Positions 19,396 to 58,238 are shown, counted from the stretch's first letter. The stretch is 64,000 bases of DNA from Dehalococcoidia bacterium (GCA_965197795.1 OZ240228.1:813128-877127); one strand, 5' to 3'. Notes: generated by a model not told the origin, from the letters alone. Made by a program: numbers and translations.

Positions 19396-20669
19396 TTCAT
19401 CTCCACCAGCACCGTGGGAAGTTGGGCTGGACCACCGTTTTCAGGGGCAGTCGAGAGAGACGACAATCGAGTCCTTAGGCGCGTCAAGGACGGCTGAACA
19501 TAGTGATCGTCCATTCGGCGCGGACTGGTCCAGTTACCAGCCAGCGAAGCGACTGAACGCGAAACGAGCGTCGTCGCGAGAGTTGCAAAAGCCCTTCTAT
19601 AGCCGTGAGCGGTGAATGCCTCAACACCAGCCTGAGAACACGCGACAGCCAAATCCCTCGACCATTGTCGGTATGTCCAGGCCCCCGCCGTTATCCGTCT
19701 CCAGAAGGGGCCAGGCACACCAAATCCGATGCGCTCCGAATGAACAAATGCCCTTGCCCACGTATTGAAGGCCACGACATAGGCCTCCAACGCATCGAGA
19801 GCGGCCTTCGGCACGGCCACCTCGAAGGGCTGGACGGAACTCTTTGCCTTGAGGATCATGCGGCCTTGACCATTAGGAAGCCTGTGCAAGTCAGCGCCGT
19901 CTAGTCGAAGGAGGGCACCTATTCGTAGACCTCGATCCGCCAGTAGGCACAGTAGCGCCTCGTTGCGGGAGCCAATCCAGCCCTCACCGCGACTCAGGAC
20001 ATGCCGAACCGCTTCGGCCTCGTCGGGCGTGGGCATTCGGCCTCCACGACCACGAGACCAGCCAACGGGCAATCGGTAGCCGGTTCCGACTAACTCGGCG
20101 ACCTGTTGGAGAGCCTGATCGACATTGCCCGCTGGTTGGGGCAAGCCGAACTGTTTGAGCTCGACCTCCATCAGGAGTGCGAATGCTCGAGCCACACTGC
20201 GTCTCTGGGAAGCGAGCCATGCTGTAATGCTCCGTCCGCCATCTGACGCCATTCCACTAGCCAAGGTCTTTCCCAGTAGATCAAGGTCCGAATAGAACCT
20301 AACCAATGAGACCGGCTCGCCCAGGAGCGTTGTCGCAAGCATCAGCGAATCACGCAGTACCCAGGAGTATTGCCGAACTGTCGCCGCTGTGAAGCGGTTG
20401 GCGACCCGCCTGCCAAACTCCGCAATGAGCGCTGCGTCGTCTGCAGGTAGGCTGGCCACCCGCCCAGTTCGTCGCTTGAGGTCCCGTGACTCAGCGCCGC
20501 AACCTGGTAGAGCCTGCTGAACGTCAGTGCCGATCTTTGCAATCTGTTCGTCTAAGTCGACTGCCGATCTTTGCTTAGTAGTTTCCGTGTCAAGCTGCGA
20601 CCAGAATGTCTCGGTGTCTTCCGCAGAACGGCAACCAAGAAGGGGTTGCGCTGAAGTCGGCGCCTTCAC
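19392..20669 (-). CDS. tyrosine recombinase/integrase (true start probably downstream of 20669)
   Basis: C-terminal catalytic motifs AHGYRRAFAT...LAGNW...DHYV (H-x-x-R ... Y). An N-terminal SAM-like core-binding region is present. Repeat unit occ1 lies within the 5' region annotated by the ORF track. Confidence 0.7.
   Translation of the reverse strand: MKAPTSAQPLLGCRSAEDTETFWSQLDTETTKQRSAVDLDEQIAKIGTDVQQALPGCGAESRDLKRRTGRVASLPADDAALIAEFGRRVANRFTAATVRQYSWVLRDSLMLATTLLGEPVSLVRFYSDLDLLGKTLASGMASDGGRSITAWLASQRRSVARAFALLMEVELKQFGLPQPAGNVDQALQQVAELVGTGYRLPVGWSRGRGGRMPTPDEAEAVRHVLSRGEGWIGSRNEALLCLLADRGLRIGALLRLDGADLHRLPNGQGRMILKAKSSVQPFEVAVPKAALDALEAYVVAFNTWARAFVHSERIGFGVPGPFWRRITAGAWTYRQWSRDLAVACSQAGVEAFTAHGYRRAFATLATTLVSRSVASLAGNWTSPRRMDDHYVQPSLTRLRTRLSSLSTAPENGGPAQLPTVLVEMK
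20525..20581 (-). repeat. bipartite repeat unit, copy 1 (reverse orientation, degenerate B half)
   Basis: cagtGCCGATCTTTGCAATC-[14]-GACTGCCGATCTTTGCTTAGTAG, compared with reverse-complement unit GACTATCGATCTTCGGAGTC-[13]-GACTGTCGATCTTTGCTTAGTAG. Confidence 0.6.
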
Positions 20670-20847
20670 GAACTGGTCTCATTGTCTAAGTCTCGGATGG
20701 AGACTTCGGCAAAGATACGGCGCCACAACTCCAGCCAGGCAGGGGTCAGTTCTGGGACTGCTTGCCAGTCCACTTGCACAGCAATGGCGCTCACCCTCGG
20801 CTTGGCCGAACGTGGACAAGGGTCTGACGGGTGGTGTTCGCTCATAC

Positions 20848-20997
20848 AGGTAGCCCCCGAGAGGCCTGGCCTGCCAGTCTGGCGCTCTCGGGGGCTTGGT
20901 CACCGCCAGTGGCGGTTGCCCACGAATTGGGTTGGCAGGCTTGAACCTCGTTGGTTCTTGCCTGTAAGGCGTGACGAAGGGCGTCACATCGTGACGG
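20848..20997. repeat. conserved ~150-bp palindrome-rich segment at the 3' flank of the 391-aa gene; a second copy (~85% identical) is at 58608-58757
   Basis: Shared ggtagcc.ccgagaggcc.ggcctgccag...ggttgcccacg.att...gaacctcgttggttctt.cctg.aa.ggcgtgacga...gcgtcacatcgtgacgg. It contains CGTGACG/CGTCAC inverted repeats. Confidence 0.6.
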
Positions 20998-21009
20998 AGT
21001 CCATCACGG

Positions 21010-23387: not shown

Positions 23388-23613
23388 AGCGGGCCTCGTT
23401 TAGAACAAGGGGCGGGGACCCCAACTGACAACTCATCCGGGTCATCTCGTGAACAGTTTCCGATTCCCCTGTCAGGCCCGCAATACCCTGGCGGACTATA
23501 GGCACGCGAAAGTCATCCACATATCGAAACAGCAGATTCGAGACGCGACTACCGGAAGGACTTGCGGCACAGCTCTAGCGGCCAGCTGAGCCAATCCGAG
23601 GAGGATGAGTGGG

Positions 23614-27633: not shown

Positions 27634-27753
27634 TTCTGGTCCTACACCCACCCGAAAAGGGGCCCCTCTGTCACGCTCTCGGTCTGGTCGACGTATTCGT
27701 CGGCATCCCCGTTGGCTGCGCAATTCTTCAATCGCGACACCACTCGACAAGGA

Positions 27754-29939: not shown

Positions 29940-30320
29940 TCAAGTAGATAATCCCCGTTTTTTGAGGACCAGCACCTCCAGCGACGGCTCTGCCACCAGC
30001 TGCTGCAGGCGCTCGTTGTCGCGCTTGAGGCTCGCCACCTCCAGCTGCGTGGCGTCGCGCACCGTCTCGGCTGCAAGCCTCGTCTTGCCAGCCTCCATGA
30101 ACTCCTTGAGCCAGGCGTAGTAGACGTTGGGGTTGATGCCCTCCCGGCGGCAGAGGTCTGACACCCTGGTCTCGCGCCGGAAGCCCTCCAGCACGACGCG
30201 GACCTTCTCCTCCGCCGTGAACTTGCGCCGAGTCGTCCGACGCACTTGCTGGATGAATTGCCGCGTCTCGTCCTCGACCGGCATCGCCTCAGCGGCTGGA
30301 ATCCTGCGCATCCTCGGCAT
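29940..30320 (-). CDS. IS3-family transposase OrfA (HTH); no OrfB present
   Basis: MPRMRRIPAAEAMPVEDETRQFIQQVRRTTRRKFTAEEKVRVVLEGFRRETRVSDLCRREGINPNVYYAWLKEF is a typical IS3/IS911 OrfA. Confidence 0.7.
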   Translation of the reverse strand: MPRMRRIPAAEAMPVEDETRQFIQQVRRTTRRKFTAEEKVRVVLEGFRRETRVSDLCRREGINPNVYYAWLKEFMEAGKTRLAAETVRDATQLEVASLKRDNERLQQLVAEPSLEVLVLKKRGLST

Positions 30321-30525
30321 GTCTCGCTCCTTCTGCCGACGGTAACCTACCGCCACTACAGGAAGCCAGAGCAACCTCAGTCATCCATTAACAATTGCTA
30401 ACTCTGTGTCCGGATTTCGCTGACGGGGAACAGTGCAAGCCAGCGACCAAAGTCTCCATTAGAAATCAGGCCGAAAAGTCCGGATTTCGCCGAAGACGTA
30501 CAGCAAGAGTCCTCGCTGTTCAGGA
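29940..30525 (-). mobile_element. IS3-family remnant (orfA plus left-end IR beginning TGAACAGCG...); orfB is deleted
   Basis: The minus-strand end at about 30525 begins TGAAC, and two GTCCGGATTTCGC direct repeats lie in the leader. It ends 2 bp before repeat unit copy 2. Confidence 0.5.
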
Positions 30526-30527: not shown

Positions 30528-30581
30528 GACTATCGATCTTCGGAGTCTGGCGATCGCCCTGACTGTCGATCTTTGCCTAGT
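30528..30581 (-). repeat. bipartite repeat unit, copy 2 (reverse orientation)
   Basis: GACTATCGATCTTCGGAGTC-tggcgatcgccct-GACTGTCGATCTTTGCCTAGT. Nearly the exact reverse complement of copy 5 (47899-47954). Confidence 0.8.
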
Positions 30582-31286
30582 CTCCTCGGTCCACTAACGT
30601 TGGTCTCGCGTGCCGCTTCGTACGAACTCCGTAAGTCGTCCAATTCAACGCATGTGATTCGGTGTGCACACGGTTCACCCGTGTAAGCGTAAGGAGGGAC
30701 ATCGCGCCCATCCGGGGCATTGTCAGTCTTATTCTGATTACACTTCTCGCACAGCAATTGCAAGTTAGTGAGTTCCGAGTGACTTCTTATCGGTATGATG
30801 TGATCCACCGTTAGCTGGTCCGTAGAGTACATGAGCTTATCGCACCTGTTGCACACCAGACCTTGCTTGTATGCAAGCAAGGTCTTCGCTTGGAATTTCT
30901 TGGGGGTGTTTATCCATCTCTGTAACTGGTGATGTGGCAGCTCATTACCGTCGACTTTGTCGTTAGATCGCTTTTTAATATCATCGATTAGGTCGTCGAT
31001 AGTGTGGTAATTGGTACCATCCAAAAGCTCACTGAACATCTCATCGAGTACTCTGGCAACCTCGCTGAACCGCTCGCCAATGCCTCGCATTGAGGCCAAA
31101 GCTTCTGTTTGAGGCAGACTGTTTGAGCTTGGACTAGAGTCCGCGTCCAGGTGAAGGATCGTGCTTTTTTCACCGCAGTCTTCGCATTGCTCAACGGTAG
31201 TAAAGCTTCCGCGGTTAGTCTCCCTCCTGTCGATTTCTTTCCATCTATGAATAACTTGGACTTCGTGCATGGAGCTTTTGTTCATT
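30530..31286 (-). CDS. HNH endonuclease (lower-GC gene); its C-terminal ~18 codons are encoded by the repeat unit
   Basis: HNH motif DHIIPIRSHSELTNLQLLCEKCNQNK. GGAGAGG RBS before the ATG at 31286. The C-terminal LGKDRQSGRSPDSEDR is the translation of repeat copy 2. Confidence 0.7.
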
Positions 31287-31974: not shown

Positions 31975-32082
31975 CATGTCGTTTCAGTCGCTTTCCCCCG
32001 ACGACGCGGTGGCGGGGGAGCAGACGCGCAACACGACCAACCTGTTCGACGGGTTCTTGCCACCCCGGACTCGGCGCCGCGA

Positions 32083-32138
32083 CTACTAAGCAAAGATCGA
32101 CAGTCCCGCAGGAACCCGGACTCCGAAGATCGATAGTC
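32083..32138 (+). repeat. bipartite repeat unit, copy 3 (forward); start of a 297-bp segment near-identical to 48721-49016
   Basis: CTACTAAGCAAAGATCGACAGTC-ccgcaggaacccg-GACTCCGAAGATCGATAGTC. Confidence 0.85.
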
Positions 32139-32337
32139 TAGCCGTACAAGGTGGTCTGCTTTGGTCTAGGCGAAGACATGGCGTTACCCATCGAAAGCCA
32201 CCGCCGTGACCAGAGCCGAGCATACCGTTCCAGTCACTCGACTGCGAGCTAGCGCGGCAAGACAACGGTCAGCTCGAAGGGATAGCCTTTACTCGCCACC
32301 GCACGAACATGGTGGAGTGTGCACCTAGTGAACAGGC

Positions 32338-33011: not shown

Positions 33012-33393
33012 ATGACTAGCGGGCGGATACCGAAGCAGAACGCCGACCGTCTGACGACGCATTCGTCGGAGGTCAACGAGGAGCTGCGGCTCCCCGGCAA
33101 AGTGCGTGCCCGGCAAGGTGCACCCACCGGCGGCTCCGGCCCACTGGCCGGAGAACGCACAGAAGTGGTATCGCCTGCTCCGGCGGTCGGGGCAAGCCGC
33201 GCTGCTCGACTACAGCGATTGGGCGCTGGCTTTGGCGGGCGGAGCTTCGAGAGATCAGCGCCGGACCCGACACGATTGGCGCGAGGATCGCTTCGCTTGC
33301 TCAATTGGTGTCAATGCCACGATCTCCCTGACCGCTCCTCATCAAGGTCAAACCGCTCTCCGGAAGCGTTGCCGGTCGCTGTCAGGGCCGTGA
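33012..33393 (+). pseudogene. phage terminase small subunit remnant (frameshifted by a 16-bp tandem duplication near 33100 and diverged at the 3' end)
   Basis: MTSGRIPKQNADRLTTHSSEVNEELRLPGKV matches the intact copy at 49511. ggcaaagtgcgtgccc is duplicated. The downstream frame gives HPPAAPAHWPENAQKWYRLLRRSGQAALLDYSDWALAL, then unrelated sequence. Confidence 0.5.
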
Positions 33394-34084
33394 CCCTCGC
33401 CCTCGAACGGGACTCCCCAGGAATTGCCTCTGCGCCGGGCGTGCACTCGGCGAGCACGGGGATGAGCGTCCTCAGGTGCGGGGTCAAGTGCGCCTCGTCC
33501 AGCAGTACCAGGCTATCGGTCCCCGCCATGGCGGCGTCTATTGGGCGCAGTGTCGATCCATAGCCGCGAAACAGGAGCCGTGAGCCGTACATCGGCAACG
33601 TACACAGGAGGACCGTCGGGCGTGACGGGTCGGCCGGCGCCCGCGAGGCGACTCCCCCGCGCAGCCGGATTACATCGAGCGCTGGTGCGGCTGGCAGGGC
33701 AGAAAGGGAACTGAGACGCTCCGCGACTCCGCCGAGAACATCTCTGGCATGTCCCGAGAGGCCGGCCGAACCGGGATCCGCGAGCACCTTCGCAAGTCTC
33801 TCGGCGTGTTCTGCGGTTGAGTCCACCAATAGGCGCCGGTTGACGACCCACCAAATACGGGTCGGTGCTGTCCGTTGCGCTGGCTCCCGATCCGCCTGCG
33901 ACGCAAGCCACCACACCGCGATGTCCAGGCACGCGGTCTTCCCTGCGCCTGTCGGAACGCCAACCTCTGCGGGCCACTCCTCGGTCTCAGCGACCCGTTC
34001 GGCCAAGCGCGCCTGCCAGGGAAAGGGCTCGCGCCCATTGATCGACCAGTAGAAGTCAGCGAAGGTCGGCGCGGGAGCCATCAT
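33311..34084 (-). pseudogene. cas3: Cas3 helicase (type I-G/I-U style, no N-terminal HD) N-terminal fragment of about 258 aa
   Basis: FADFYWSINGREPFPWQARLAERV...VGVPTGAGKTACLDIAVWW (Q motif and motif I). ...LRGG...TVLLCTLPMYGSRLLFRGYGSTLRPIDAAMAGTDSLVLLDEAHL matches the Cas3 helicase core. The ORF stops after ~258 aa where the terS remnant begins. Confidence 0.55.
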
Positions 34085-34119
34085 CGTTAACCGGGAAGGT
34101 GTTCGCTCGTCATGCCGGA

Positions 34120-44700: not shown

Positions 44701-44805
44701 GTCTCGGGCCACATCAGGCGAAAAGTACCGCTCGAAGATCGCGTCGTTCCAGTGGAGGTAAGGCCTCCACGCATTGAGTACTGGCCCCGAACCGGACTCA
44801 CCCAT
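41728..44805 (-). CDS. DruH-like large protein of unknown function (1025 aa), translationally coupled to the DruE-like gene
   Basis: 4-nt overlap with the downstream DruE-like start. Size and position fit DruH of type III Druantia, but no diagnostic motif is recognised. Confidence 0.4.
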   Translation of the reverse strand: MGESGSGPVLNAWRPYLHWNDAIFERYFSPDVARDRPVYLDTDEDVLNEIGEYAELGSVDDFQSAVLATLDRGGDLSHLFYWHQVFLDDWASKGRSGHPLFIGLLAFFCLVASRMKNTLEHAGNNFYTPLTEGLGLQEAQRKAVEEEYAAIDQFWRQLNAWMREQESEHGVPTAVPLDHRIHVSIPLSQALLREQDREAFPDLFDAYDLRPGQVISRADMLRLLQDWVPHSKLSQTVKRLWRRVEVRERVAEIAGGELKAWDGVSRESTDSALRRRARLSLVATFRRLPHPTLRLSLAVSDSGSLQNGPFVLQPGSAEAAQLAFAELGGEVHLRPGEVKGWLEVEDAELVSIPDILLGTVDLKSSQGDSSIVRNPRSVVVLTSDESLGEYVEAGNVELGRECLLLVVDRLADRVEDVLTRIARDGYKRHTQGTVVNGPEGWTLFSSVQVLGLLDSTDLDLSPLMPLSWTSVELHGGVRLRNSVWLVSAPPDVIANAHDTKTLKLAVYADELDGHRSKEVALAEEPVESSTVLQLSGRGLGEGDFLALLEDGGRVVASASLRLRSADHPRPGPSTAWFGHDLSGPPVGAISASSSDSAPNASLSGVLVTSDGEAVSNRSGLPPEALSEELQPWPEEDEVDELPAIQTAPISLAAQGCLTGAHHWVIQAVTNLSGFYRPHSGYCKNCNKSRHFPPSPRRRRPKTGAQTVLPSSRRDLRPRLLPALGITRTTSGEDFDLLLEALSYEGAGLWSSFEKLARQLEDSALFAVESMRQLVALGHIDVALSAAEMRPTAWSVAPSVLAFSSDAGSAVLCGRRSKTLVEALEKEVSDAGGNVVTTRPANGPKRYRVEGLTRGQVEFVTEKLSDLGHEITARADPTREALALLPPFSSLMAQAREITPPTRFGVQKFDPPSNRWQDCSDLTETAAYRFPAHPRVVAVYDGKVYKQAETRLAKLWAATLSEAPACSYSPAEEELVVRAGSELPGLYGRVATLCSGLPPVSRSDRASVYQAVPPDVASLLWEKVTS

Positions 44806-44908
44806 GTTCCACCTGCAATGTCCGTAGTCGTTCTCCCACGATTAAGAGATTGACGAATGCTAATCGCACTTAAGTGGAGGCGTAAAGGACTGAAGGTTGG
44901 AAGGTTCG

Positions 44909-45601
44909 TTACAAGGAAGAATCGCAGATGGATGTCAGCGGACACACCGTGCAGGCGGGCCTCACGTAGCGGCAGACTGTCGAACCGAGGTCGAGCAGTG
45001 CCCAGTTGAAGGTCATGTGCTGTGGTTCAGGCAAGAGCGCAGTGGCGAGCTCCTGGACGGGGCTCAGCCGAGGGGTGGGGCCTAGTTGGTCTCTGAACAC
45101 GCGTCCGAGCACGCGGACTACATTCGAATCGACTACCGCTGAAGGGACGTCGAATGCAAAAGACAGCACTGCACGAGCGGTATAAGGGCCGACGTGAGGC
45201 AACGCAGAAAGCTCTTCGAAGGAAGCAGGGATACTCCCGCCGTGTTTCTCCATGAGGACGCCCGCAAGCGCCTTCAGCCCGACTGCGCGCTGGGTATACA
45301 GCCCGACGGGCCTTAAAACACCTGAGAGTTCGTCTATCGGTGCGCGTCCCAAGCTTGCTAAGTCCGGGTACTGCTCCAAGAATTCTGGGAACGCGCGGGC
45401 TGCTGCGCGTGCCGTCGTCCGCTTCAGAAGCAGTTCTGCAATAAGCACCTCGTAAGGGGGGATGCCTCGGCGGCGCCAAGGAAATTCTCGGAACGCTGAT
45501 GGAGCCCACGCCAAAAGCAAACAGGCGAACTCGCTCAACGCCTTCGACACCTGGGTCTGGTTGCCGTTCTCCCCCACGTGACGAGCATAGCCTGGGTTCA
45601 A
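44909..45601 (-). CDS. HhH-GPD DNA glycosylase (MutY/Nth-like catalytic domain with a [4Fe-4S] cluster; no MutY C-terminal domain)
   Basis: PWRR...PYEVLIAELLLKRT, LGRAPIDELSGVLRPVGLY.QRA, LPHVGPYTARAVLSFAF...DSNVVRVLGR, C.YVRPACTVCPLTSIC. Confidence 0.7.
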   Translation of the reverse strand: MNPGYARHVGENGNQTQVSKALSEFACLLLAWAPSAFREFPWRRRGIPPYEVLIAELLLKRTTARAAARAFPEFLEQYPDLASLGRAPIDELSGVLRPVGLYTQRAVGLKALAGVLMEKHGGSIPASFEELSALPHVGPYTARAVLSFAFDVPSAVVDSNVVRVLGRVFRDQLGPTPRLSPVQELATALLPEPQHMTFNWALLDLGSTVCRYVRPACTVCPLTSICDSSL

Positions 45602-45689
45602 CCAGCTGTCCCATGTTCATGCAGGACGGGCCCGAGAGCCGAACATTGTTAGAATTCCCCAGCAGTACCCTCGCTACAGGTGGTAAGAG

Positions 45690-46436
45690 ATGACGACGCC
45701 ACAGGCCTCAGATGCCGCCGAACAGATTGTTCAGAGCGTAATGGCTAAGTATGTGGACAAGAGAGTTGCCTACTACCGGGATACGTCACTGCTCTCGAAG
45801 CTACTCCAGAAGGATCACTTGATTTTCGCTCTAAAGGGCGCGAGCACTGTGGAAGAATGGGTCATTGAGGCCTTAGCAGCCCATGAGTCCTCCTCTGAGG
45901 AGACCGTGATGGGCAACGCATGGCAGCAGATCCTGACCGACCTTTCACAATCGGTAGGGGCGGGTGACCTCTTCGTGGAGAAAGCGGGGACGCTATGGGT
46001 CATCGAAATGAAGAGTCAGACCAATACCTTGAACTCGACGGCCCTCGCTCAGACGTTGCGCGTCCTGAAAACAAAAGTAATTGAGCAGTCCCGGGTCCAC
46101 GCTCCGGGGCGTCGGGGTGTAAGACCAATGATTGGAGTCATCCGAGGGCCTGCCAGCGACGTGGACAGGGTGTTCGTTGCGGCCTCACCGGAGAACCGGG
46201 ATATCGACGGCTTTCAGTATCACTATATGGTTGGTACACCGTTTCGGGCCTGGCTCACAGGTATCGCTAACCCAGCGCAGTTGGTAACGGACCTCGCCGA
46301 GACCTCGGAGCGAGTTTCCAACGCCCGCGCGGCATGTCGGCTGAGGTTGGCCGCTGAAATGGAAGCAGTCCTGGCTCAGGAAGGCCTAGCCAGCAATATT
46401 GAGTCCGTTATTAGGTTGGTTGCCGGCAAGCTTTAG
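45690..46436 (+). CDS. putative type II restriction endonuclease, convergent with the C5-methyltransferase
   Basis: PD-(D/E)XK-like GDLFVEKAGTLWVIEMKSQ. Tail-to-tail with the dcm gene (3-bp gap). Confidence 0.4.
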   Translation: MTTPQASDAAEQIVQSVMAKYVDKRVAYYRDTSLLSKLLQKDHLIFALKGASTVEEWVIEALAAHESSSEETVMGNAWQQILTDLSQSVGAGDLFVEKAGTLWVIEMKSQTNTLNSTALAQTLRVLKTKVIEQSRVHAPGRRGVRPMIGVIRGPASDVDRVFVAASPENRDIDGFQYHYMVGTPFRAWLTGIANPAQLVTDLAETSERVSNARAACRLRLAAEMEAVLAQEGLASNIESVIRLVAGKL

Positions 46437-46438
46437 GA

Positions 46439-47755
46439 CTAGATGCTTGCTTCTGCGTAGGCCTTGACCGCAGCTGGCTCCGGTAGAAGTTCGCTAGCTG
46501 GTTGGAGCGGCGGTTGCGTTCGCTCTCCGTGTCCCGTGTCCCTAGGCTCACCCTCCGAAGTTCTTATAAGTGCACGTCCGATGGCCTCCCCAAGGCTGAC
46601 CGGAACGGCGTTCCCCAGTTGTTTGTACTTGCTCGCCGTCCTTCCGGCGAGCAAGTAGGTGTCAGGGAAGGTCTGAATCCGTTTGTACTCTTGGACTGAG
46701 AGCGGCCTGGTCTCCGTCGGGTGACAAAGGCCGGTTGCTAGCTGCGCCGGGCTGGTCGTAACCGTCGGTGACGGTTCGTTAAGCGAGAGTCGCCGCCAGA
46801 AGCCGACCCTGCCGCCCGTGGACTGGAGTGCACCTCCCATCGCACGTTCTAAGAGGCCTTCGGCAAATAGGTCTGCGTTGTCCCTGAGGTGACGCCAGTT
46901 CCTGCCCTGCGGTATCAGTGAATAGACCCGCGCTCTAAATGGACTGTACGGCGAGAACTCGGGTGGCCCTAGCGGATCCGGGACGAATGCGTCTCCCAGT
47001 GTCACCCATGGCTGCCGTCCCTCTCCCGGGTGTGAGGCGATCAGCCGGCTTTTCTTGGTGCCCACAGGTGCGCCGTGGGTGGGGCGCACGAGGTCTTGTA
47101 CCGTGAGCGGCCGGCCGGCCTCCCCGAGGAACTCCTGCGACCTGAACTCGTGCTCGCGGCTCCCGAGGACGACCACGCGCGTCCGCCGCTGCGGCACGCC
47201 GTAGTCGGCCGCGTCTACAAGGCCGGCCACGACCTCATAGCCGAGGGCCTCAAAAAGGGGCCGGATAAATGACTTGTAGAGGCTCCCGAGCTCTTCACCG
47301 GGCTGGAGCGGCACGCTGCCTTTTCCCCTCGCTGACAAGGGGCGGTGTTGAAGTGCAGCGGACAACAGCCCTCGGACGTTCTCGAAGACGAAGAACCGGG
47401 GCATTGCAGTCTTTACTATTTGGAAGTAGTGGTCGACAAGCGCGCCCCTCGGGTCATTCAGCGACTGCCGGTGGCCAGCCGTCGAGAACGCTTGGCAGGG
47501 TGGGCCACCCGTCACCGTGAAGGCCTCGCCTTGCTCCAGGCCCGCGGCGGCAAGCAGTTCTGCCCCGTTAACTTCGGTGATATCTGAGAACAGGGCGTTT
47601 GATGGGATCTCGAAGTTCTGACGCAGCGTCTCCTGAGAGTCGCGGTCGACTTCGACCCAGGCATTGAACCGGAGGCCAGCGTTCTCCAGCCCAAGATCCA
47701 GCCCACCAGCACCGGAGAATAGCGAGATAGAAGGGTCGGCGGGGGACGGTAACAT
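46439..47755 (-). CDS. dcm: DNA (cytosine-5)-methyltransferase
   Basis: Motif I ISLFSGAGGLDLG, motif IV GGPPCQAFS, ENV, QRRTRVVVLG, TFPD...GNAVP. Confidence 0.85.
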   Translation of the reverse strand: MLPSPADPSISLFSGAGGLDLGLENAGLRFNAWVEVDRDSQETLRQNFEIPSNALFSDITEVNGAELLAAAGLEQGEAFTVTGGPPCQAFSTAGHRQSLNDPRGALVDHYFQIVKTAMPRFFVFENVRGLLSAALQHRPLSARGKGSVPLQPGEELGSLYKSFIRPLFEALGYEVVAGLVDAADYGVPQRRTRVVVLGSREHEFRSQEFLGEAGRPLTVQDLVRPTHGAPVGTKKSRLIASHPGEGRQPWVTLGDAFVPDPLGPPEFSPYSPFRARVYSLIPQGRNWRHLRDNADLFAEGLLERAMGGALQSTGGRVGFWRRLSLNEPSPTVTTSPAQLATGLCHPTETRPLSVQEYKRIQTFPDTYLLAGRTASKYKQLGNAVPVSLGEAIGRALIRTSEGEPRDTGHGERTQPPLQPASELLPEPAAVKAYAEASI

Positions 47756-47796
47756 CACTTGCCCTCTAGAGGGATAATTTAGCTCTAAGCGAGCCA

Positions 47797-47818
47797 CATG
47801 TCGATCTTTGCTTAGTAG
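47797..47818 (-). repeat. repeat unit half-copy (reverse A half only), copy 4
   Basis: aTGTCGATCTTTGCTTAGTAG, 78 bp upstream of forward copy 5. The two form a short inverted pair. Confidence 0.6.
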
Positions 47819-47898: not shown

Positions 47899-47954
47899 CT
47901 ACTAAGCAAAGATCGACAGTCAGGGCGATCCCTAGACTCCGAAGATCGACAGTC
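47899..47954 (+). repeat. bipartite repeat unit, copy 5 (forward)
   Basis: CTACTAAGCAAAGATCGACAGTC-agggcgatcccta-GACTCCGAAGATCGACAGTC. Reverse complement of copy 2. Confidence 0.8.
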
Positions 47955-48387: not shown

Positions 48388-48720
48388 GTGGATTACGTCG
48401 TCAAGCCCTTCTCGCCGACCGAGCTTTCGGCCAGGCTCCGAGCGGCCCTGCGAAGGCGGGCCGTGTCCGAGCCGTCCGTGCTGGGCGACCTGGTTGTCGA
48501 CTACGCCGACCGCAGGGTGACCTTTGCCGGTCGTCCAGTCGAGTCGATGGCAATCGAGTACCGGCTGCTTGTCGAGGTTTCAGCGAACGCCGTGCGGGTG
48601 TTGACCTATGACCATCTACCGCAACGGGTCTGGGACGAGAAGAGCAGCAGCGACATGCGCCCCATGCGCATCATCGTAAGCAAGCTCCGTCGCAAGCGCC
48701 GACCACGTCGACAACCCCAT
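48388..48720 (+). pseudogene. C-terminal winged-helix (OmpR-type) fragment of a response regulator, cut at both ends
   Basis: PFSPTELSARLRAALRR...LVVDYADRRVTFAGRPVESMAIEYRLLVEVS...RVWDEKSSSDMRPMRIIVSKLRRK is a trans_reg_C domain. No receiver domain is upstream. The 3' end runs into repeat copy 6. Confidence 0.55.
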
Positions 48721-48775
48721 CTACTAAGCAAAGATCGACAGTCCCGCAGGAACCAGACTCCGAAGATCGATAGTC
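48721..48775 (+). repeat. bipartite repeat unit, copy 6 (forward); tip of the left ~230-bp terminal inverted repeat
   Basis: CTACTAAGCAAAGATCGACAGTC-ccgcaggaacca-GACTCCGAAGATCGATAGTC. Homology continues inward to about 48950 and is mirrored at 58040-58238. Confidence 0.85.
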
Positions 48776-48974
48776 TAGCCGTACAAGGTGGTCTGCTTTG
48801 GTCTAGGCGAAGACATGGCGTTACCCATCGAAAGCCACCGCCGTGACCAGAGCCGAGCATACCGTTCCAGTCACTCGACTGCGAGCTAGCGCGGCAAGAC
48901 AACGGTCAGCTCGAAGGGATAGCCTTTACTCGCCACCGCACGAACATGGTGGAGTGTGCACCTAGTGAACAGGC

Positions 48975-49510: not shown

Positions 49511-49939
49511 ATGACTAGCGGGCGGGTGCCGAAGCAGAATGCAGACCGTCTGACCACGCATTCCTCGGAGGTCAACAAGGAGCTGCGGCTCCCCGGCAAG
49601 GTGCACCCACCGAAGGCCCCGGTGCAGTGGCCTGAGAACGTCAAGAAGTGGTACGGCCTGCTGCGGCGATCCGGGCAAGCCGAGCTGTTCGACTACAGCG
49701 ACTGGGCGCTGGCCCTCCAGGCTGGAGACTGCCTGACCTACGCCCGGGCGTCAATCGTGAAGAGTCCATGGGCGGCCGTGCAGTGGATGCGCACGTTCGA
49801 CGCCATGTACGCCCGCCTCGGCGCTACGTTCATCGACCGGCGGCGCGAGCGGCTGGAGCTGCACAGGGGCGACGTCATCGAGGAGGAGAGTGAGGCACCG
49901 GACACCATCATGGCGTATCGGGAGCGTTTCGGCGAATGA
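49511..49939 (+). CDS. phage terminase small subunit
   Basis: MTSGRVPKQNADRLTTHSSEVNKELRLPGKVHPPKAPVQWPENVKKWYGLLRRSGQAELFDYSDWALAL, directly preceding the terminase large-subunit gene. Confidence 0.6.
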   Translation: MTSGRVPKQNADRLTTHSSEVNKELRLPGKVHPPKAPVQWPENVKKWYGLLRRSGQAELFDYSDWALALQAGDCLTYARASIVKSPWAAVQWMRTFDAMYARLGATFIDRRRERLELHRGDVIEEESEAPDTIMAYRERFGE

Positions 49940-50979
49940 AGGCGCTGCGGACGCTCCCCGAGGGCTTGCCCGGGCCGGCCCAGAGCATCGGCTGGTGGGT
50001 GGCCGACTGGTGTGAGCGCAACCTCGAGGTCCCAGACGGCCCGGAGGCCGGTAAGTCATGGCGCTTCACAAGGAGCAAGGGAGGTTCCTGCTGTGGTGGT
50101 ACGCCATCGATGAGAAGGGCCTGTTTCGCTACCGCTACGGCGTCCTACAGCGGGCGAAGGGTTGGGGCAAGGACCCGCTGGCGGGCGCGATCGCGCTATG
50201 TGAGCTGATGGGGGCCGTGCCGTTTTGACCGGATCGAGGGCGGCGTCGCCTACGCAAAGCCGGAGGCTTCACCGTGGATTGCCATCGCGGCGGTAGCGGA
50301 GGAGCAGACGCGCAACACGACCAACCTCTTCGACGGGTTCCTTCCTCCCCGGACGCGGAGACGGTACAAGATGCAGGTCGGCAAGAAGATCTGGCGCGCA
50401 ACGGTCGGCGGCCGGACGGGGGAGATTCCGCCTCGCGCCACGTCTTACCGCACGGCCGAGGGCGCTCGGCCGACGGCCTACATCCTCGGCGAGACGCAGC
50501 ACTGGCGCGCGGAGAACCACGGCCACGACATGTACGCGGCGATCCAGCGCAACCTGGGCAAATCGCGCGAGGGCGCGGCCCGTGCGCTGGCGACCACCAA
50601 CGCCTTCCGCCCAGGTGAGGACAGCATCGCCGAGCGTGACTACGACGCCTGGTTGGAGCAGTCGCGCGGCGGCCGGGTCGACATCCTTTATGATTCAGTG
50701 GAGCCTGTACTGGCGGATGACTTCGATGAGGACGACGACGAGGTGATGATGGAGGGCATCGCGGTAGCTTACGGCGACTCGCTCCCGTTCATATCGCCGT
50801 CCCGGATCATGGCGGAGGTCAGGTCGCCGACGGTTACCACGGCCGACGCGAAGCGCTTCTACCTCAACCTCCGTGTAGCCGGTGCCGGTGCCTGGATGAA
50901 CCCTTCGGCCTGGGACGCGAGCTACCGATCGCGCCTCGCGTTCCCTCTCTCCCGAACGAAAATCTGCTCAGGGACCTAG
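49936..50979 (+). pseudogene. phage terminase large subunit, N-terminal two-thirds, with two frameshifts (about 50065 and 50225), truncated
   Basis: Three frames join to give ...SWRFT|EQGRFLLWWYAIDEKGLFRYRYGVLQRAKGWGKDPLAGAIALCELMG|DRIEGGVAYAKPEASPWIAIAAVAEEQTRNTTNLFDGFLPPRTRRRYKMQVGKKIW... This is the terminase_1-type ATPase domain. The ORF ends at about 350 aa. Confidence 0.6.
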
Positions 50980-53247: not shown

Positions 53248-53400
53248 GTCTTGCCCTTCCCATCCCAGGACTCTCTTGGCGATCTCGCGGCCCACTTTTG
53301 CCCTCAGGAAAATTTGAACCAACTGCCTTCTGAAGATACCGCGCGTGGCAAGGCAAGTCGTGTACGTACGGAGCATCCACCTCCGGTGGCTCCTGAGGAC

Positions 53401-53453
53401 AGGTGAGCATACCCTTATAGAGGAACGCTCTTAAGGGTATGCTCACCTGTCCT
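53401..53453. other. perfect 20-bp inverted repeat hairpin (GACAGGTGAGCATACCCTTA-13 nt loop-TAAGGGTATGCTCACCTGTC) overlapping the helicase gene stop
   Basis: Seen directly in sequence. Candidate terminator or protein-binding site. Confidence 0.5.
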
Positions 53454-55277
53454 TAGATAACCGGCGACTGTCCTGCGACTTGCACCGGCCAGCTGTGCCA
53501 CGCCGCTGGTTGTAATTGGCGCGCACCTCTTCTGCAGTTGTAACACAGCACTGCGGATCCGTCTCTCCGCATCCTCGCGGCGCCGGTCGTTAAGCTGCGA
53601 CGACTCACTGTTGGTTATTAGCTCGTCAACATGGAGCCCTGGTACTGGGTGGCTCGTATGCAGAACAACCCGAAGCTGCTGCCGTGTTGAACCAATGCAC
53701 TTCGAGAGGAGAGCAGGTTGCTCAAGCGTGAAAATACGGGCTCGCTGGATAGATTGTTCCATCTCGTCTTCACGTGCTGCTCGCAGAAGTTCAGCAACGC
53801 GAGGATCAATGCAGTCCACTACGTCGACCTCGTATCCTTGTCCGCCGAAGACTCGAGGTGATAGCACCATCCGGCCACTCACCGGTGGCTCGTTCGTATG
53901 CAATACCTGCGCCAGGAAGAATAGATCCTGCAGAGACGGCATCGGCCGTCCCACGAGGTGCAGCCTCTCCACGTCTGCGAGCGCGTTGGTGCCGCGAACG
54001 CTGCCAAACGTCACTACCTGCTCCTCGGCAAAGCCATCGGAGACGAGGCCTGCTCGCATCCCGCGAAAACAGATGACACCTTCTTTTTCGGGAGGTAGTG
54101 GGAGCGATAGCCGTTCAGAGTTGATCTCGGCCCGGACTTGGAGGGCTTTGTTCGCGTTACTTAGCACTGTGTGGCCGTTCGTGGTGGCTGCATACTGGAC
54201 CACCTTGACGTTTTGTGGCTTGCGGATAGCCACATCGATATCTGGCAGCCTCTCGTGATCGCGGGTTAGATGATGAACTAGGGTGGTCACCGGAGTGGCG
54301 TCAAGGAGCAGTAAGTCCAGCTGCGATAAGAGCGCCTCTCCTATCCTGCTCCTGACATGGTGCTTGAGGTTCCAGACCTCGATGCCGTCTAGGCTGAGAC
54401 GTAGCCGGCTGTTGAAGTCATCCCCAGCTTTGAATGAGCCGAGCTCATCTTGCAGAGTAGCGAAGAGGGTGTCGAGAGTCGCGGGTGGGGCTCTCTCCAC
54501 GGATTCACGGCTGACTAGACCTTGCTCATCTGCCGTAGGCTTCGGAAGCCTGGTCTGTTTGGGCAGCGCCTCAATCAAAGTCACGATGTCGAATCCGTAG
54601 CGGCGGGCGGTTCTCGCAAGCTGATCCCACGCATGGCCCCCTATCAGCCTCACGGGGCCACCGTCTTCGCGACATGGGACTTCCAGGGCTGCGTGGCTGA
54701 GGATTGCCAGTAGCCTGCGTAACCCGGTTCGGCGTTTGCCTCGCAGGAGCTTATAAGCGCGTACTAAGTCTTCTCTACTAATGTAAATGCGCTCTACTAG
54801 GGCTCGCATGAGGTCGGCATCGTCCACTACCAGGAGCCTGCCGCCGGCCAGGAAGTTGCGGTTAAAGAGCTGCTCGGCAGCGGCGACTCGTGGTCCAGCC
54901 TGTTCAAACTGACGCCAGTAGGCGCAATCGTTGCGTATTGGGCAGCGTGGCTTGTCGCTCCGGCCGCAGGCCAAGTCTTCCACGCTATGTCCGGATTGTG
55001 CCAAGGCCTCTACGACATCGTGACGATGACAGTTGCCGGGATGCCGGCCCTCAACTAAGACGTAGCCGTGCTCGGCTGCCAACTCGCGCGCGAGGCGAAG
55101 TGAACCCGTGACAATGCGCGTATTCACGCCTCGCCTGTGCACAGCTTCGGCAACTGCTGTGGTCTTGCCGACACCAGGTGAGCTTTTAATCAGTTGCGCC
55201 TTCACTCCCGATGTCCCGCCTTCGATGAACTGGCGGATGGCTTCTGTTGTGTCACGACGCGCCGTAGCCAATGGCAC
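53415..55277 (-). CDS. P-loop ATPase, putative replicative helicase of the element (primase-associated)
   Basis: Walker A SSPGVGKTTAV and Walker B LLVVDDADL. 620 aa. Located directly downstream of a Zn-finger/Toprim primase gene. Confidence 0.4.
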   Translation of the reverse strand: MPLATARRDTTEAIRQFIEGGTSGVKAQLIKSSPGVGKTTAVAEAVHRRGVNTRIVTGSLRLARELAAEHGYVLVEGRHPGNCHRHDVVEALAQSGHSVEDLACGRSDKPRCPIRNDCAYWRQFEQAGPRVAAAEQLFNRNFLAGGRLLVVDDADLMRALVERIYISREDLVRAYKLLRGKRRTGLRRLLAILSHAALEVPCREDGGPVRLIGGHAWDQLARTARRYGFDIVTLIEALPKQTRLPKPTADEQGLVSRESVERAPPATLDTLFATLQDELGSFKAGDDFNSRLRLSLDGIEVWNLKHHVRSRIGEALLSQLDLLLLDATPVTTLVHHLTRDHERLPDIDVAIRKPQNVKVVQYAATTNGHTVLSNANKALQVRAEINSERLSLPLPPEKEGVICFRGMRAGLVSDGFAEEQVVTFGSVRGTNALADVERLHLVGRPMPSLQDLFFLAQVLHTNEPPVSGRMVLSPRVFGGQGYEVDVVDCIDPRVAELLRAAREDEMEQSIQRARIFTLEQPALLSKCIGSTRQQLRVVLHTSHPVPGLHVDELITNSESSQLNDRRREDAERRIRSAVLQLQKRCAPITTSGVAQLAGASRRTVAGYLRTGEHTLKSVPL

Positions 55278-55293
55278 GCCCGTGACGACAGCG

Positions 55294-56457
55294 CTACTGA
55301 TTGCCGAAGGCCTTACTGGCCGCCGTTCGCCGATGCCGGGAGGAGCGAAGCACCTCGACCGAATGCGCGCCGTCCCCCAGCGAGAAGCAAGTCGTCAAGA
55401 CCCTTCGGCCCGCCCACCTCGTCACCCTCCCACACAGCCCGGAAGACCGGCAGGCCCGCATCAAACAGCTCCCGCAGCCACCGTTCTCTTGCGCGCGTGG
55501 TGTTTGGATTGTCCTCTTCGTCGAGTGCAACGATGACTCGGCCCGGGTGAAGGTCGCAATCACGCCAACGTGGTGAGCGCTAAGCGATTGGCCGGCCAGG
55601 CCCATGACCGTCACTTCACCCAGCCGATGCGCCACGTGGGCTTTGATGCCGCCCTCGGTCAGGTATAGATCACCGCCCGGTTCGGGAATTCCTGCTATGT
55701 GGTAAAGCCCGGCCGTGCGTGTGCCCCGTGCTGTTTCGTACTTGCCGCCGACGAACTTGAACTGAAGCCCAGTGATCAGACTCGTCTCATCTCGATAAGG
55801 CACGGCGTAGGCCTCTTGACTTCCAGAGGTGCGAAAGCTCGTGCGCCCGTTCTTATCGACGAAGCCGGGCCATCGCCTGAGGTATCGCTCCCCGAAGCGG
55901 TTCACTAGGTTAAGGAGAAAGCGCTGGACACTGCTGCCCCTGCGTGGTAGAGAACAATAGCCGACCTCCCGGACGTCATCGTCCGTTAGTCCGCGCCGTC
56001 TGAGGTCGGCCCGCGCCTCCGGTCGAAGGTCTAGGAGACTCAGTGCCGCGGTATAAATGGCGTCGACCTCATCTCGGCTTAGGTCTGGAGCCTTACTGGA
56101 AGCCCTAATGCGGGGCTGGGGGCGTTCAACAGAGGGCGGGAAGTCATGCTCAAGCCCGCATGGACATCGCCCGGAGAGCAGATGTTTGTACGCAGGCGGG
56201 TGGGTCTCTATGTCGAGCTGTGCCCTGCCGGCATGCTCGTGACGCGTGCAATATGTTGTTATGCGGAGCGAAAAACCGGCACACCGGACTCCACGCTCTC
56301 GCGGCAGGCCGGAATGACCGCCGCAAACTGGGCACGGGAACAACCGGCTATGGCGCTGGAGATTAGCCTTCCCAATCTGCACCTCTCGCACGACCTGATC
56401 GTTCATGGCAGACGCACTCGACATCTCGCGGTGATCGGCGGCCAGGTCCTGGTTCAT
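55294..56457 (-). CDS. zinc-finger + Toprim DNA primase, apparently frameshifted near 55565
   Basis: CPVCGG...C...C zinc finger. Toprim E (YLTEGGIKA) in the main frame. DxD (RVIVALDEEDNP...) continues in the +2 frame after cacccgggccgag. Confidence 0.45.
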   Translation of the reverse strand: MNQDLAADHREMSSASAMNDQVVREVQIGKANLQRHSRLFPCPVCGGHSGLPRERGVRCAGFSLRITTYCTRHEHAGRAQLDIETHPPAYKHLLSGRCPCGLEHDFPPSVERPQPRIRASSKAPDLSRDEVDAIYTAALSLLDLRPEARADLRRRGLTDDDVREVGYCSLPRRGSSVQRFLLNLVNRFGERYLRRWPGFVDKNGRTSFRTSGSQEAYAVPYRDETSLITGLQFKFVGGKYETARGTRTAGLYHIAGIPEPGGDLYLTEGGIKAHVAHRLGEVTVMGLAGQSLSAHHVGVIATFTRAESSLHSTKRTIQTPRAQENGGCGSCLMRACRSSGLCGRVTRWAGRRVLTTCFSLGDGAHSVEVLRSSRHRRTAASKAFGNQ

Positions 56458-56828
56458 GCAGCACCGCCCGTTGTGCCGGACTGCCGCTCACCGTTATCGC
56501 CGGACGCGGCGGGGTCCTCAACAGGCGCGAAGTCGTCGGCTATAGACTTGAGAATCTCCCGCCACAGCGCATCCCAAGCCGGTGCGCGTGGCCCCGCCGT
56601 CCAGGCCGCCGCAAATCGCGGAGATCGATACCTCGCCGCGGGTTTGCCTCCGGCCTCCTGAACCTCGGTGCTGAGGAGGCCGTCAACGTGCTGCCGGTCG
56701 ACCATGCGCTTGCCGGAGGGGAGTTGAAGAAAGGGCAGCCAGCCCCGGTCAAGCCACCGACGTACCGTGCGAGGATGCACGTCGCACTGCGCCGCGACTT
56801 CCGAGACCGAGAGATATTTGTCCGCCAT
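56454..56828 (-). CDS. excisionase/MerR-type HTH DNA-binding protein
   Basis: LSVSEVAAQCDVHPRTVRRWLDRGWLPFLQLPSGKRMV is an Xis/HTH_17 motif. 4-nt overlap with the primase start. Confidence 0.5.
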   Translation of the reverse strand: MADKYLSVSEVAAQCDVHPRTVRRWLDRGWLPFLQLPSGKRMVDRQHVDGLLSTEVQEAGGKPAARYRSPRFAAAWTAGPRAPAWDALWREILKSIADDFAPVEDPAASGDNGERQSGTTGGAA

Positions 56829-56891
56829 TCGCGCAGAATGCCGCGCAGTGACACGGTCGATGCGGACACGCCAATGCCCGCAAAAGGGTAA

Positions 56892-57758
56892 TTATTGCAA
56901 TGTAAGGCCCGAGGCTTTGGCGAACCGACTGACAGCCTTGCGAATGGCGTCTGAAGAAACGTCGTGCCCATCCAGTTGCAACTCCCGAGCCCGCTTCTCG
57001 TAGCTCAATTTGGGGTCGAGTAGATGGGAAGCCGTCCACCGAGCGTGCAGCTTGAGTTTGGCGGCCTTCGGGACCTGCCATTCGCCGGTGCCGAGGGCCA
57101 GGCCGCGCAGACGGAGCCGAACGGGATCTATCTGTCTATGAACCGAACGCCTCTCCCGCTTCCACAGCGGTCGCTTGAGATGAATTTCGATCTCTAACGT
57201 GTCCACGTCGGCAAGACGTGGCTCATGTGCGGAAACAGACAGGTCCCCGATGACCGTCTCGGCGCCGTCATTGAGAGTGACCGGGGCTGAGGTTTCCAGG
57301 ACCCAGCCAACTGCCCCGACGAGACCGATAAACCCATCTAAGCCGGACTTCACGCGCCTGAGGTGAGAAGCAACCACGAAGGGCTCGGCCCACCGATTGT
57401 GCAGCCGCCAGTCCATGCACAAGCGGCCTACATCACCCTGGTACGCTTTGACATGGTGGCGCTGCGAGCTTCGGAGACGAATCCCGTCGTCGCGGCCGTA
57501 TTGCCGCTGTAAGGGAGTAGACACTTCTTGCTTGAGCCAGGTCGACAACCGCGCCGGCGACCGTGGAAGCCTGTTTGGTCTGTGATGGGCAAGCCGCGTG
57601 ATGATTCGGCGGTTTTGTTCGTAGATGGCCTCGAGGCCTGAGTGAAACTTTTCGCCCTGGGCGCTCTTGTCCTGGTACATGGCTTGAAGTAGTAAGCCGG
57701 TCAGGCGGACCTGGCTATCAGTGAGCGTTAGCCCTCTATGATCGCCGCCTCGTGGCAT
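56892..57758 (-). CDS. hypothetical protein (288 aa)
   Basis: Clean ORF in the replication/regulation module. No motif recognised. Confidence 0.35.
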   Translation of the reverse strand: MPRGGDHRGLTLTDSQVRLTGLLLQAMYQDKSAQGEKFHSGLEAIYEQNRRIITRLAHHRPNRLPRSPARLSTWLKQEVSTPLQRQYGRDDGIRLRSSQRHHVKAYQGDVGRLCMDWRLHNRWAEPFVVASHLRRVKSGLDGFIGLVGAVGWVLETSAPVTLNDGAETVIGDLSVSAHEPRLADVDTLEIEIHLKRPLWKRERRSVHRQIDPVRLRLRGLALGTGEWQVPKAAKLKLHARWTASHLLDPKLSYEKRARELQLDGHDVSSDAIRKAVSRFAKASGLTLQ

Positions 57759-58182
57759 CCGACTACACCATTACCGGAGAGACTCTCAAAAGGTTGCTCA
57801 GACCGGATGATGCGCTGGCGGCGAAACCGTTCGTTAGACGGAACGCGACCCCTGGCGAGCGTCCACAGACTGGCATATCGACCGTCCCCGCGGTTCCCTT
57901 CGCTACCCGCGTCCGACCACTGGTCTCCTAGTATAGGGAAGCGCGAAGGTCACGCGGAACGGAAGGCCTACCGCCGAGGCGCTGTTTATCAACGATGAAC
58001 AGTCATCCCGATGTTCGTCCAGTGGTGAGTAAAGGCTATCCCTTTAGGCTGACCGTTGCTTTGCCGCGCTAGCTCGCGGTCGAGTGACTGGAACAGAATG
58101 GTCTGCTCTGGTCACCGCGGTGGCTTTCGATGGCTAACGCCATATCTTCGCCTAGACCAAAGCAGGCCACGTTCTACGGGCT

Positions 58183-58238
58183 GACTGTCGATCTTCTGAA
58201 TCTGACTTCCTGTGAGACCGTCGATCTTTGCTTAGTAG
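58183..58238 (-). repeat. bipartite repeat unit, copy 7 (reverse); tip of the right terminal inverted repeat
   Basis: GACTGTCGATCTTCTGAATC-tgacttcctgtga-GACCGTCGATCTTTGCTTAGTAG. Confidence 0.8.

Follow-up and report, generated by a model that had tools for sequence, protein, structure and literature searches.

A repeated DNA unit linked to a divergent tyrosine recombinase pair at module boundaries of a dnaN-associated island in Dehalococcoidia

A stretch of 64,000 nucleotides from a Dehalococcoidia bacterium (GCA_965197795.1, OZ240228.1:813128-877127), hereafter the window, contains a bipartite repeat unit seven times between defence and phage-like genes. Which process places such a unit at the borders of unrelated modules, and which enzyme acts on it? 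The answer we favour, with a probability of about 0.55, is that a two-protein module, YR1/YR2, uses the unit as its DNA recombination site, and that exchange would occur at its outer edge with a second unit or with a partner ending in (C)TAC. As far as sequence comparison can tell, YR1/YR2 is most likely a previously undescribed recombinase pair of uncultured Dehalococcoidia. Loci of other genomes are given L numbers in the following.

A first-pass annotation of the window had listed seven copies of the unit, the fourth as a half unit, and this count held in a pattern search. The 13-mer AAGATCGAYAGTC with at most one mismatch had 11 matches in the window against 0.11 expected. The 23-mer CTACTAAGCAAAGATCGACAGTC with at most three mismatches had exactly 7 matches against 0.00 expected, at 20559-20581(-), 30561-30583(-), 32083(+), 47796-47818(-), 47899(+), 48721(+) and 58216-58238(-). 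The six full units and one half unit were named E1 to E7, and 'inside' denotes the direction from the outer edge towards the second core:

20525-20581, minus strand: E1, the platform copy (E1 type), pointing into YR1; outer edge at 20581/20582.
30528-30581, minus strand: E2, a class B leader in direct orientation with E1; edge at 30581.
32083-32310, plus strand: E3 with an inverted class A copy; unit at 32083-32138, edge at 32083.
47797-47818, minus strand: E4, a half unit with the first core only; edge at 47818.
47899-47954, plus strand: E5, a class B leader; edge at 47899; 80 bp left over from an Excalibur-domain gene form the outer flank.
48721-48947, plus strand: E6 with an inverted class A copy; unit at 48721-48775, edge at 48721.
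58003-58238, minus strand: E7 with class A continuation; unit at 58183-58238, edge at 58238.

The unit is longer than the approximately 55 bp assigned to it before: a conserved block starts sharply at ACTAAGC and extends about 100 nt inward. It comprises two direct repeats of about 21 bp, the first being ACTAAGCAAAGATCGRCRGTC, the second presenting an AAGATCG.C core 32-35 nt further in; the spacing from core to core varies (32-34 nt) and is not fixed at about 33 bp. The spacer has a common sequence motif with the consensus AGGAAG. E1 represents the E1 type of unit and the other six copies in the window the general type, and the second repeat of the unit differs between the two clades of YR1. 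E4 and E5 are arranged head to head, as had been noticed, 80 bp apart. E2 and E5 had been described as exact reverse complements including the spacer, bracketing a 17-kb block of defence genes as one cassette. Their identity is 89% over 74 nt, the spacers differ (AGGGCGATCGCCA vs AGGGCGATCCCTA), and both units face away from the block and turn the variable outside towards it, which is the wrong orientation for such a cassette. Leaders headed by a unit (classes A, B and C) recur across genomes with different flanks or downstream genes. Most general-type units also have a palindrome, CTGTACAG / CCTGAACAGG, located 5-25 nt inside the second core (e.g., 58165-58180; columns 57-80 of alignment A5), which could serve as operator for a dimeric regulator or as a further recombinase-binding element.

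E1 points into YR1, the first of two genes for paralogous proteins:

19392-20459, minus strand: YR1, a very divergent tyrosine recombinase with a complete catalytic set; the likely start is GTG at 20459.
18397-19395, minus strand: YR2, a full-length paralog of YR1 without catalytic residues.

YR1 has a weak match to the Phage_integrase family of Pfam (PF00589, 23.4 bits, below the gathering score of 27.1), and in NCBIfam the only match, of XerD type, was sub-threshold (18.7 bits vs a cutoff of 279). The nearest solved structure is XerD (E=4e-4). R179, K206, H285, R288, W310 and Y320 were invariant in 20 of 20 aligned homologs. The protein is very rare: a word-indexed search of 5.8 billion proteins revealed 24 relatives at E<=1e-3, and a YR1 profile run on 1.84 billion proteins found 89 representatives with E<=1e-30. 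YR2 aligns with YR1 in hhalign over 276 columns with 97.5% probability, and its profile matches XerA (E=1e-4). Comparison with YR1 reveals an inactivated protein: it has no HxxR, carries Ser, Ala, Glu or Gln in place of the tyrosine, and in the main clade has Asp or Glu where YR1 has its first Arg. Neither protein is more than remotely Xer-like. With the catalytic set kept in YR1 and lost in YR2, the module, judged by sequence, combines an active recombinase with a dead partner.

The association of unit and recombinase pair was surveyed by pooling the genetic contexts of six YR1 relatives with the loci obtained from DNA scans. By this comparison, 13 of 14 related gene sets have the unit ahead of YR1, typically at about 120 nt (range about 100-150 nt) and pointing into YR1; these unit-linked YR1 genes or fragments are those of the window, L006, L008, L009 (a fragment), L013 to L015, L016 (two pairs) and L018 to L021. 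The second L016 pair has a YR1 with 37% identity to that of the window, and its unit is still recognisable (ACTAAGgAAAGATCGGCAC...GAAGATCGGCAC). No unit was detectable at the most distant pair, L022 (39% identity). The co-occurrence agrees with the proposal of the first-pass annotation that the unit behaves as an array of recombination sites, for which the adjacent tyrosine recombinases are the right candidate enzymes. Contigs reaching far enough (L008, L015, L019, L021) present the gene order unit, YR1, YR2, a small gene, a large serine recombinase (LSR) gene and convergent dnaN. A further unit next to the platform unit has direct orientation in the window (E1, E2), in L018, L020 and L021. 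The unit does not lie in the 5' region of the recombinase gene, as had been annotated, but upstream of its conserved start (approximately 20459). The long open reading frame (ORF) running through it is an artefact of the high G+C content (58-69% in the window), and the varying core spacing keeps no frame.

A scan of one genome per species detected the unit only in metagenome-assembled genomes of Dehalococcoidia (7 loci in 5 genomes), besides one chance match in a Senegalimassilia contig. A metagenome scan added two loci, both with E1-type units upstream of YR1. Two unit patterns had only chance matches of low G+C content in viral contigs, which also lacked a relative of the p620 gene of the window, and a 236-bp class A segment with its unit had no match in plasmid or phage collections. 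Exact-protein look-ups of the window genes for strain variants returned no record. The papers searched contained neither the motif in a relevant context nor a description of this system.

The outer edge of the unit is a breakpoint of homology, and in this sense the units partition defence and phage-like modules as first supposed. In an alignment of 30 distinct copies, no position outside the edge exceeds 0.7 bit of information, and 2 bits are reached at the A of ACTAAGC and beyond. Directly outside many units, ACT is reiterated (CTACTACTAC, ctactactACTAAGC), with C at -2, -5, -8 and -11; this 3-nt period fits an exchange in slipped registers. The position of the break was exactly defined by comparison with related loci (a stroke marks the junction). 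L015 has a YR1 with 95% identity to that of the window and is collinear with it over 7.9 kb at 87% identity, and homology ends exactly at 20582. L015 reads ...CCCGACGGGACTAC/TAAGCAAAG, whereas in the window ...CCCGACGGGACTAC/CAGCGACGG is uninterrupted and lies inside gene p391, 734 bp further out (GGGACTAC/CAGCG uninterrupted vs /TAAGC at the unit). The uninterrupted site in the window together with the L015 junction indicates that L015 has lost the DNA from the unit to a CTAC site. Gene p217, located beside E7, codes for a C-terminal domain homologous to that of p391.

At E4 the roles are exchanged: L007 has an uninterrupted ORF with Excalibur domain, ...GACGCGCTAC/AACTATGG, and the window has ...GACGCGCTAC/TAAGCAAAG, thus GCGCTAC/AACTAT stands against /TAAGC at the unit. 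E5 and its flank have 87% identity to L007 3238-3411. At E3 the outer edge truncates a fragment of the terminase large-subunit gene (TerL), reading ...GACTAC/TAAGCA vs ...CGGTAC/AAGATG in the intact paralog at 50363. The outer edge of E6 truncates a response-regulator pseudogene (48388-48720) after ...ATCTAC. Comparison with the uninterrupted counterparts, available for TerL, p391 and the Excalibur gene, places all three breaks directly after (C)TAC and at the same nucleotide of the unit. A conserved inverted outer arm was not found; GAC motifs recur outside at variable distances and were judged to be noise. An attempt to pair the outer flanks in TerL, the response regulator and the Excalibur gene as the two sides of simple insertions failed, the remainder of the interrupted genes being absent.

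For the recombination-site reading we propose the following course. YR1 would be the catalytic subunit and the inactive YR2 probably a DNA-binding or architectural partner. The two direct repeats of about 21 bp would be the protein-binding elements; which protein occupies which repeat we infer. Strands would be exchanged at the outer edge, within or beside the (A)CTAC that directly precedes TAAGC, possibly as a single pair, because only one subunit type is active. As only the inner side is conserved, the site would be one-sided; a second unit, or a short secondary site with (C)TAC at its end, would serve as partner. Recombination between units in direct orientation would insert or excise a unit-led module beside the platform, possibly via circular modules, and recombination between inverted units would invert the segment. 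An event between a unit and a secondary site would delete DNA or fuse the unit to a truncated gene, as observed.

The module itself is located in a larger mobile region. The chromosome is ordinary as far as the essential gene dnaN (15420-16553) and turns into an island thereafter, with these landmarks:

16500-18086, minus strand: LSR gene (Pfam Resolvase, Recombinase and Zn_ribbon_recom; XisF/CcrB/CcrC-like in NCBIfam).
16527-16557, plus strand: attL of the LSR island, the last dnaN codons and stop (TCATGCCGATGTTCGTTCAATGGTGATAAA).
58002-58032, plus strand: attR-like site that repeats the dnaN tail in direct orientation; it lies at the inner end of the E7 class A segment.

The 3' end of the LSR gene overlaps the convergent 3' end of dnaN at 16500-16553. 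LSR genes adjoin dnaN likewise in L008, L015, L019 and L021, a decayed one in L006. Comparison of attL with the far boundary yields a 31-bp direct repeat (16527-16557 vs 58002-58032), and a 21-mer within it occurs only at these two places. The LSR gene and the duplicated dnaN 3' ends show, as far as sequence allows, that the whole region is an LSR-integrated island at the dnaN 3' end. In the simplest map, island 1 would extend from 16553 to 58002 with an intact module, and a second island with a collapsed module would start at 58002. Signs of tandem accretion are present in L012 and in the class A copies. The window contains neither tRNA nor tmRNA genes, so the island is not tRNA-targeted. For the reading of the unit as YR1/YR2 site this suggests two tiers of mobility: the LSR would dock whole islands at dnaN, and YR1/YR2 would exchange, delete or invert their cargo at the unit edges.

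The class A segments connect both tiers. Inverted repeats of about 230 bp had been annotated and exist, with 86.6% identity for 48718-48947 vs 58241-58011 and 85.8% for 32072-32310 vs 58250-58011. They had been taken for transposon termini; they reproduce the segment located behind dnaN in L007. There, the same 230 bp lie directly after intact dnaN and consist of the dnaN tail (...MPMFVQW and stop), a terminator-like hairpin, about 150 nt and the unit, without recombinase genes; the copies in the window (E3, E6, E7) retain the last 8 dnaN codons at the inner end. The same 230-bp structure is present in three genomes. E7 and its outer flank share 87% identity over 522 bp with the flank and unit ahead of an intact YR1/YR2/LSR set in L020, where the LSR has 92% identity to that of the window. 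Over its first ~100-135 nt, class A is similar to the YR1 leader of clade-B modules. It is therefore read as a collapsed integration module, which would have lost its genes but kept two recombination sites, with the unit at its outer and the LSR att site at its inner end. Units are absent within 10 kb of the L023 and L024 relatives of the phage-like element enclosed by E6 and E7 (p387, p620, HNH, TerS, TerL), so the 230-bp repeats are not the own ends of that element.

Several observations do not fit a recombination site easily. A classical core site of tyrosine recombinases would be expected to have a conserved inverted outer arm, which the unit lacks. Inverted unit pairs have flanks that do not match up as simple insertions, and neither reciprocal products nor a circular junction were observed. 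Homology between L016 and L017 breaks about 130 nt upstream of a cargo gene and not at a unit, that between L018 and L020 240 nt outside the unit. Units linked to the platform usually keep a p79-like gene directly outside, hence the outer side is not always variable. The intact YR1 of the window belongs to the clade with E1-type units, yet the six other copies are of general type. Tandem LSR accretion together with collapse of integration modules may in part explain E1, E7 and the class A copies.

The last point leads to the best surviving alternative, in which the unit is a regulatory leader, operator or promoter, of the recombinase operon, no crossover site, and the additional copies are decayed and rearranged relics of successive tandem LSR integrations at dnaN. 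E1 and E7 are direct repeats with homologous outward flanks (20848-20997 vs 58607-58758, with p79-like genes) and fit two tandem LSR islands bounded by dnaN-tail repeats. The likeness of the class A start to the clade-B YR1 leader, the palindrome after the second core as a possible operator, and the nearest sizeable inside genes, which mostly read away from the edge (YR1, an HTH_Tnp_1 gene, the C5 methylase, the response-regulator remnant), point the same way. Random decay, however, would not yield a nucleotide-identical edge in 30 copies, nor would it place three independently checked junctions after (C)TAC in unrelated genes. The identical class A structure in three genomes is likewise unlike independent decay, and a scan of the E1 unit detected no sigma-70-like promoter. 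We regard this explanation as rather unlikely, while it retains an appreciable share of our belief.

Very improbable is that the units are terminal site arrays of a Mu/Tn7-like DDE transposon with its transposase encoded elsewhere, and that E6-E7 and E3-E4 are complete elements. This analogy was drawn by the first-pass annotation; the inverted pairs with units at their tips, the two direct repeats per end and the genes truncated at the tips speak for it. A transposase was linked to the unit in 0 of 17 unit-bearing contigs; YR1/YR2, in contrast, accompany it in 13 of 14 gene sets. In the island, Pfam scans for a cognate DDE transposase returned none, the only transposase-related match being the HTH_Tnp_1 ORF at 29940-30374, and in the gene tables of related loci the only such genes are IS-type rve or DDE_Tnp genes at least 5 kb from the units. 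Target-site duplications were sought at both E6/E7 and E3/E4 and were absent, and the flanks of each pair originate from unrelated genes. The dnaN 3' end and the region behind it are part of the 230-bp repeats, the relatives of the enclosed element in L023 and L024 lack units, and elsewhere units are mostly solo or in direct orientation.

Least credible is a structured RNA, a DNA hairpin acting as single-strand site (attC-like or IS200/IS605-like) or a coding part: AGTC...GACT around the spacer can pair, IS608 inserts 3' of a short tetranucleotide, which the junctions recall, and ORFs read through the unit, but Rfam at gathering thresholds had 0 matches in the window, RNAalifold on 18 copies gave -4.8 kcal/mol with 8 pairs and 0 compensatory changes, the spacer has a common motif (AGGAAG) and not a covarying hairpin, HUH or TnpA genes are missing, and the core spacing of about 32-34 nt breaks the reading frame.

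Among known systems, the presumed YR1/YR2 site is closest in function to an integron platform; in protein make-up it recalls SE, GInt and Tn554, and the island is of SCC/ssrA-GI type with dnaN as a new target. The integron attI site has direct accessory repeats (DR1/DR2) beside the IntI gene and a crossover at the far edge. Here as well, a tyrosine recombinase gene adjoins a site of ~60-100 bp with two direct accessory repeats, the crossover would fall at the gene-distal edge, with conserved sequence on the recombinase side and new DNA beyond, recombination with short secondary sites would truncate genes, and a further site follows the platform in direct orientation in 4 genomes. In contrast to integrons, YR1 is remotely Xer-like and matches no IntI model, an inactive paralog is always present, and the module sites are copies of the platform site with direct repeats rather than palindromic attC hairpins. 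Modules are multi-gene and span 0.7-16 kb, units occur in both orientations, and the platform resides inside an LSR island.

SE, GInt and Tn554 have an operon of tyrosine-recombinase-fold proteins that includes a catalytically dead member (Tfp, GinC) and a small protein, with two active recombinases and imperfect inverted terminal motifs of 13-19 bp (C and C'); SEs were detected only in Gammaproteobacteria, Tn554 in Firmicutes (PMC10214605). The dead recombinase-fold partner, an operon at one border, short sequence-specific junctions and a reaction that may exchange only one strand pair are shared features. In contrast, there is one active enzyme here (YR1), an inverted terminal copy of the 23-mer is missing between the operon and dnaN, and the described hosts belong to other phyla. 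This separation is based on the descriptions of these elements; YR1 and YR2 have no family-level match in NCBIfam or Pfam.

The comparison with SCCmec (CcrAB, rlmH) and ssrA-GI (DsiB) concerns the island and not the unit. In the ssrA islands of Dehalococcoides, DsiB overlaps attL (PMC3146451). The dnaN island likewise has an LSR of CcrB/CcrC/XisF type, whose gene adjoins and with its 3' end overlaps attL, a direct repeat of the target-gene 3' end at the distal boundary, an integration module by attL followed by variable cargo, and signs of tandem accretion. It differs in the target, dnaN instead of ssrA or rlmH, and in a tyrosine recombinase pair with its own repeated site; the word 'tyrosine' is absent from the main text of PMC3146451.

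Shufflons (Rci/sfx) and the pdif sites (XerC/D) of Acinetobacter plasmids also have many site copies in both orientations that partition DNA into modules. The shufflon site sfx has one conserved arm only. It differs from the unit in having 19 bp, being situated inside pilV coding segments and recombining only between inverted copies. The pdif sites have 28 bp with inverted arms, and sites of the Xer/dif type 28-30 bp with two inverted recombinase-binding arms and a spacer of 6-8 bp; an inverted arm is missing from the unit, whose two repeats are direct and which has no conserved position outside its edge.

A more specific form of the recombination-site reading is possible, which we put forward tentatively and consider unlikely to hold in every part. 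YR1/YR2 would be an integron-like second-tier capture device inside an LSR island, with a heteromer of an active and a dead subunit, a one-sided site and exchange of a single strand pair at (A)CTAC, joining the platform to any module that bears a unit or to nearly any DNA with (C)TAC, and so assembling and reshuffling defence islands beside the origin-proximal dnaN. If the recombination-site reading is right, bacteria would have a new route to build and remodel defence islands, a phylogenetically remote analogue of integrons and of SE/GInt/Tn554. It would also be a testable case of an inactive recombinase paralog as obligatory partner. The sequence ACTAAGCAAAGATCG... would then be a tag for module boundaries in the hard-to-study genomes of Dehalococcoidia, and a one-sided site with minimal demands on its partner could become a recombination tool.

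Two small genes accompany the module:

18114-18347, minus strand: p77, a small Cys-rich protein (CWCGC motif), kept after YR2 in clade-A modules.
58367-58606, minus strand: p79, a small gene directly outside a platform-type unit.

Pfam assigned none of the small conserved genes to a family. The 76-77-aa genes at the position of p77 in L016, L019 and L021 have 60-80% identity to it. The small gene after YR2 is clade-specific: clade A (window, L016, L019, L021) has the 77-aa Cys-rich protein, whereas L018 (12404-12568) and L020 (12392-12565) have a protein of 54-57 aa that by eye is ribbon-helix-helix-like. Homologs of p79 with 64-69 aa lie directly outside the YR1-linked unit in L016 (9807-10001), L018 (9801-10004) and L021 (9795-10004); L020 has a further, uncalled one there, and E1 a degenerate copy on its outside. 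The p79-like genes (64-79 aa) share the motif W..W.E.W.RI.RDI. p79 resembles the C-terminal half of an HTH_17 excisionase-like protein at 56454-56828 and is a candidate directionality or accessory factor. In L016 (10100-18238), the only locus seen with two intact pairs, two complete unit-YR1-YR2 sets face each other across a gene for a 634-aa serine recombinase, forming an 8.1-kb segment bounded by inverted units.

DNA outside the units of related loci codes mostly for defence: type I restriction-modification, GmrSD, a PLD-SNF2 helicase and a KAP NTPase. In the window, a C5 methylase gene follows about 40 nt downstream of E4 and is the first gene of a Druantia-like operon with homologs of DruF, DruE and DruK. 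This operon (35238-47730, minus strand) comprises the methylase (46439-~47730), DruF (41728-44805, E=1e-150), DruE (36350-41731, 1630 bits) and a DruK-like PD-(D/E)XK nuclease (35238-36500); a gene for an EcoO109I-like restriction endonuclease (45690-46436, plus strand) is situated between methylase and DruF. The 10-kb block headed by E2 extends towards E1, and its main genes, including one for an AriA-like ATPase, are on the minus strand, the pointing direction of the units. A two-gene set for a 260-aa protein and a protein of ~570 aa with a QueC-like domain (E=4e-9), possibly a QatC-like defence pair, is located directly outside the platform in four loci: L016 (6395-8880), L017 (4326-6811), L018 (6865-9466, led by its own class B unit) and L021 (6394-8888).

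The region from E6 to E7 is a degraded phage-like or satellite-like element. Its TerL gene (49936-50979) is split over at least two frames, and with the response-regulator pseudogene at 48388-48720 the element looks decayed. An inverted repeat of 25 nt (96%) with a 14-nt loop is located at 53393-53456, at and directly past the 3' end of p620, and may represent a terminator or an origin-like hairpin of the element. The N-terminal part of a Cas3g-type helicase, present as an isolated fragment (33311-34195, E=8e-70, about 230 of 836 profile positions), adjoins the end of homology to the E6 phage-like element (~33230), which is probably another, unmarked junction. Beyond E7, a 49-bp direct repeat (86%; 59898-59946 and 62145-62193) surrounds ~2.2 kb directly after the C-terminal fragment of a second LSR (59059-59913); 31 bp of it are 100% identical to L024 8667-8697, directly upstream of the p387 homolog in a phage-like relative, and may be the att site of that element family. 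In the chromosomal part of the window, a near-perfect palindrome of 41 bp (3344-3384) directly follows a SIMPL-domain gene.

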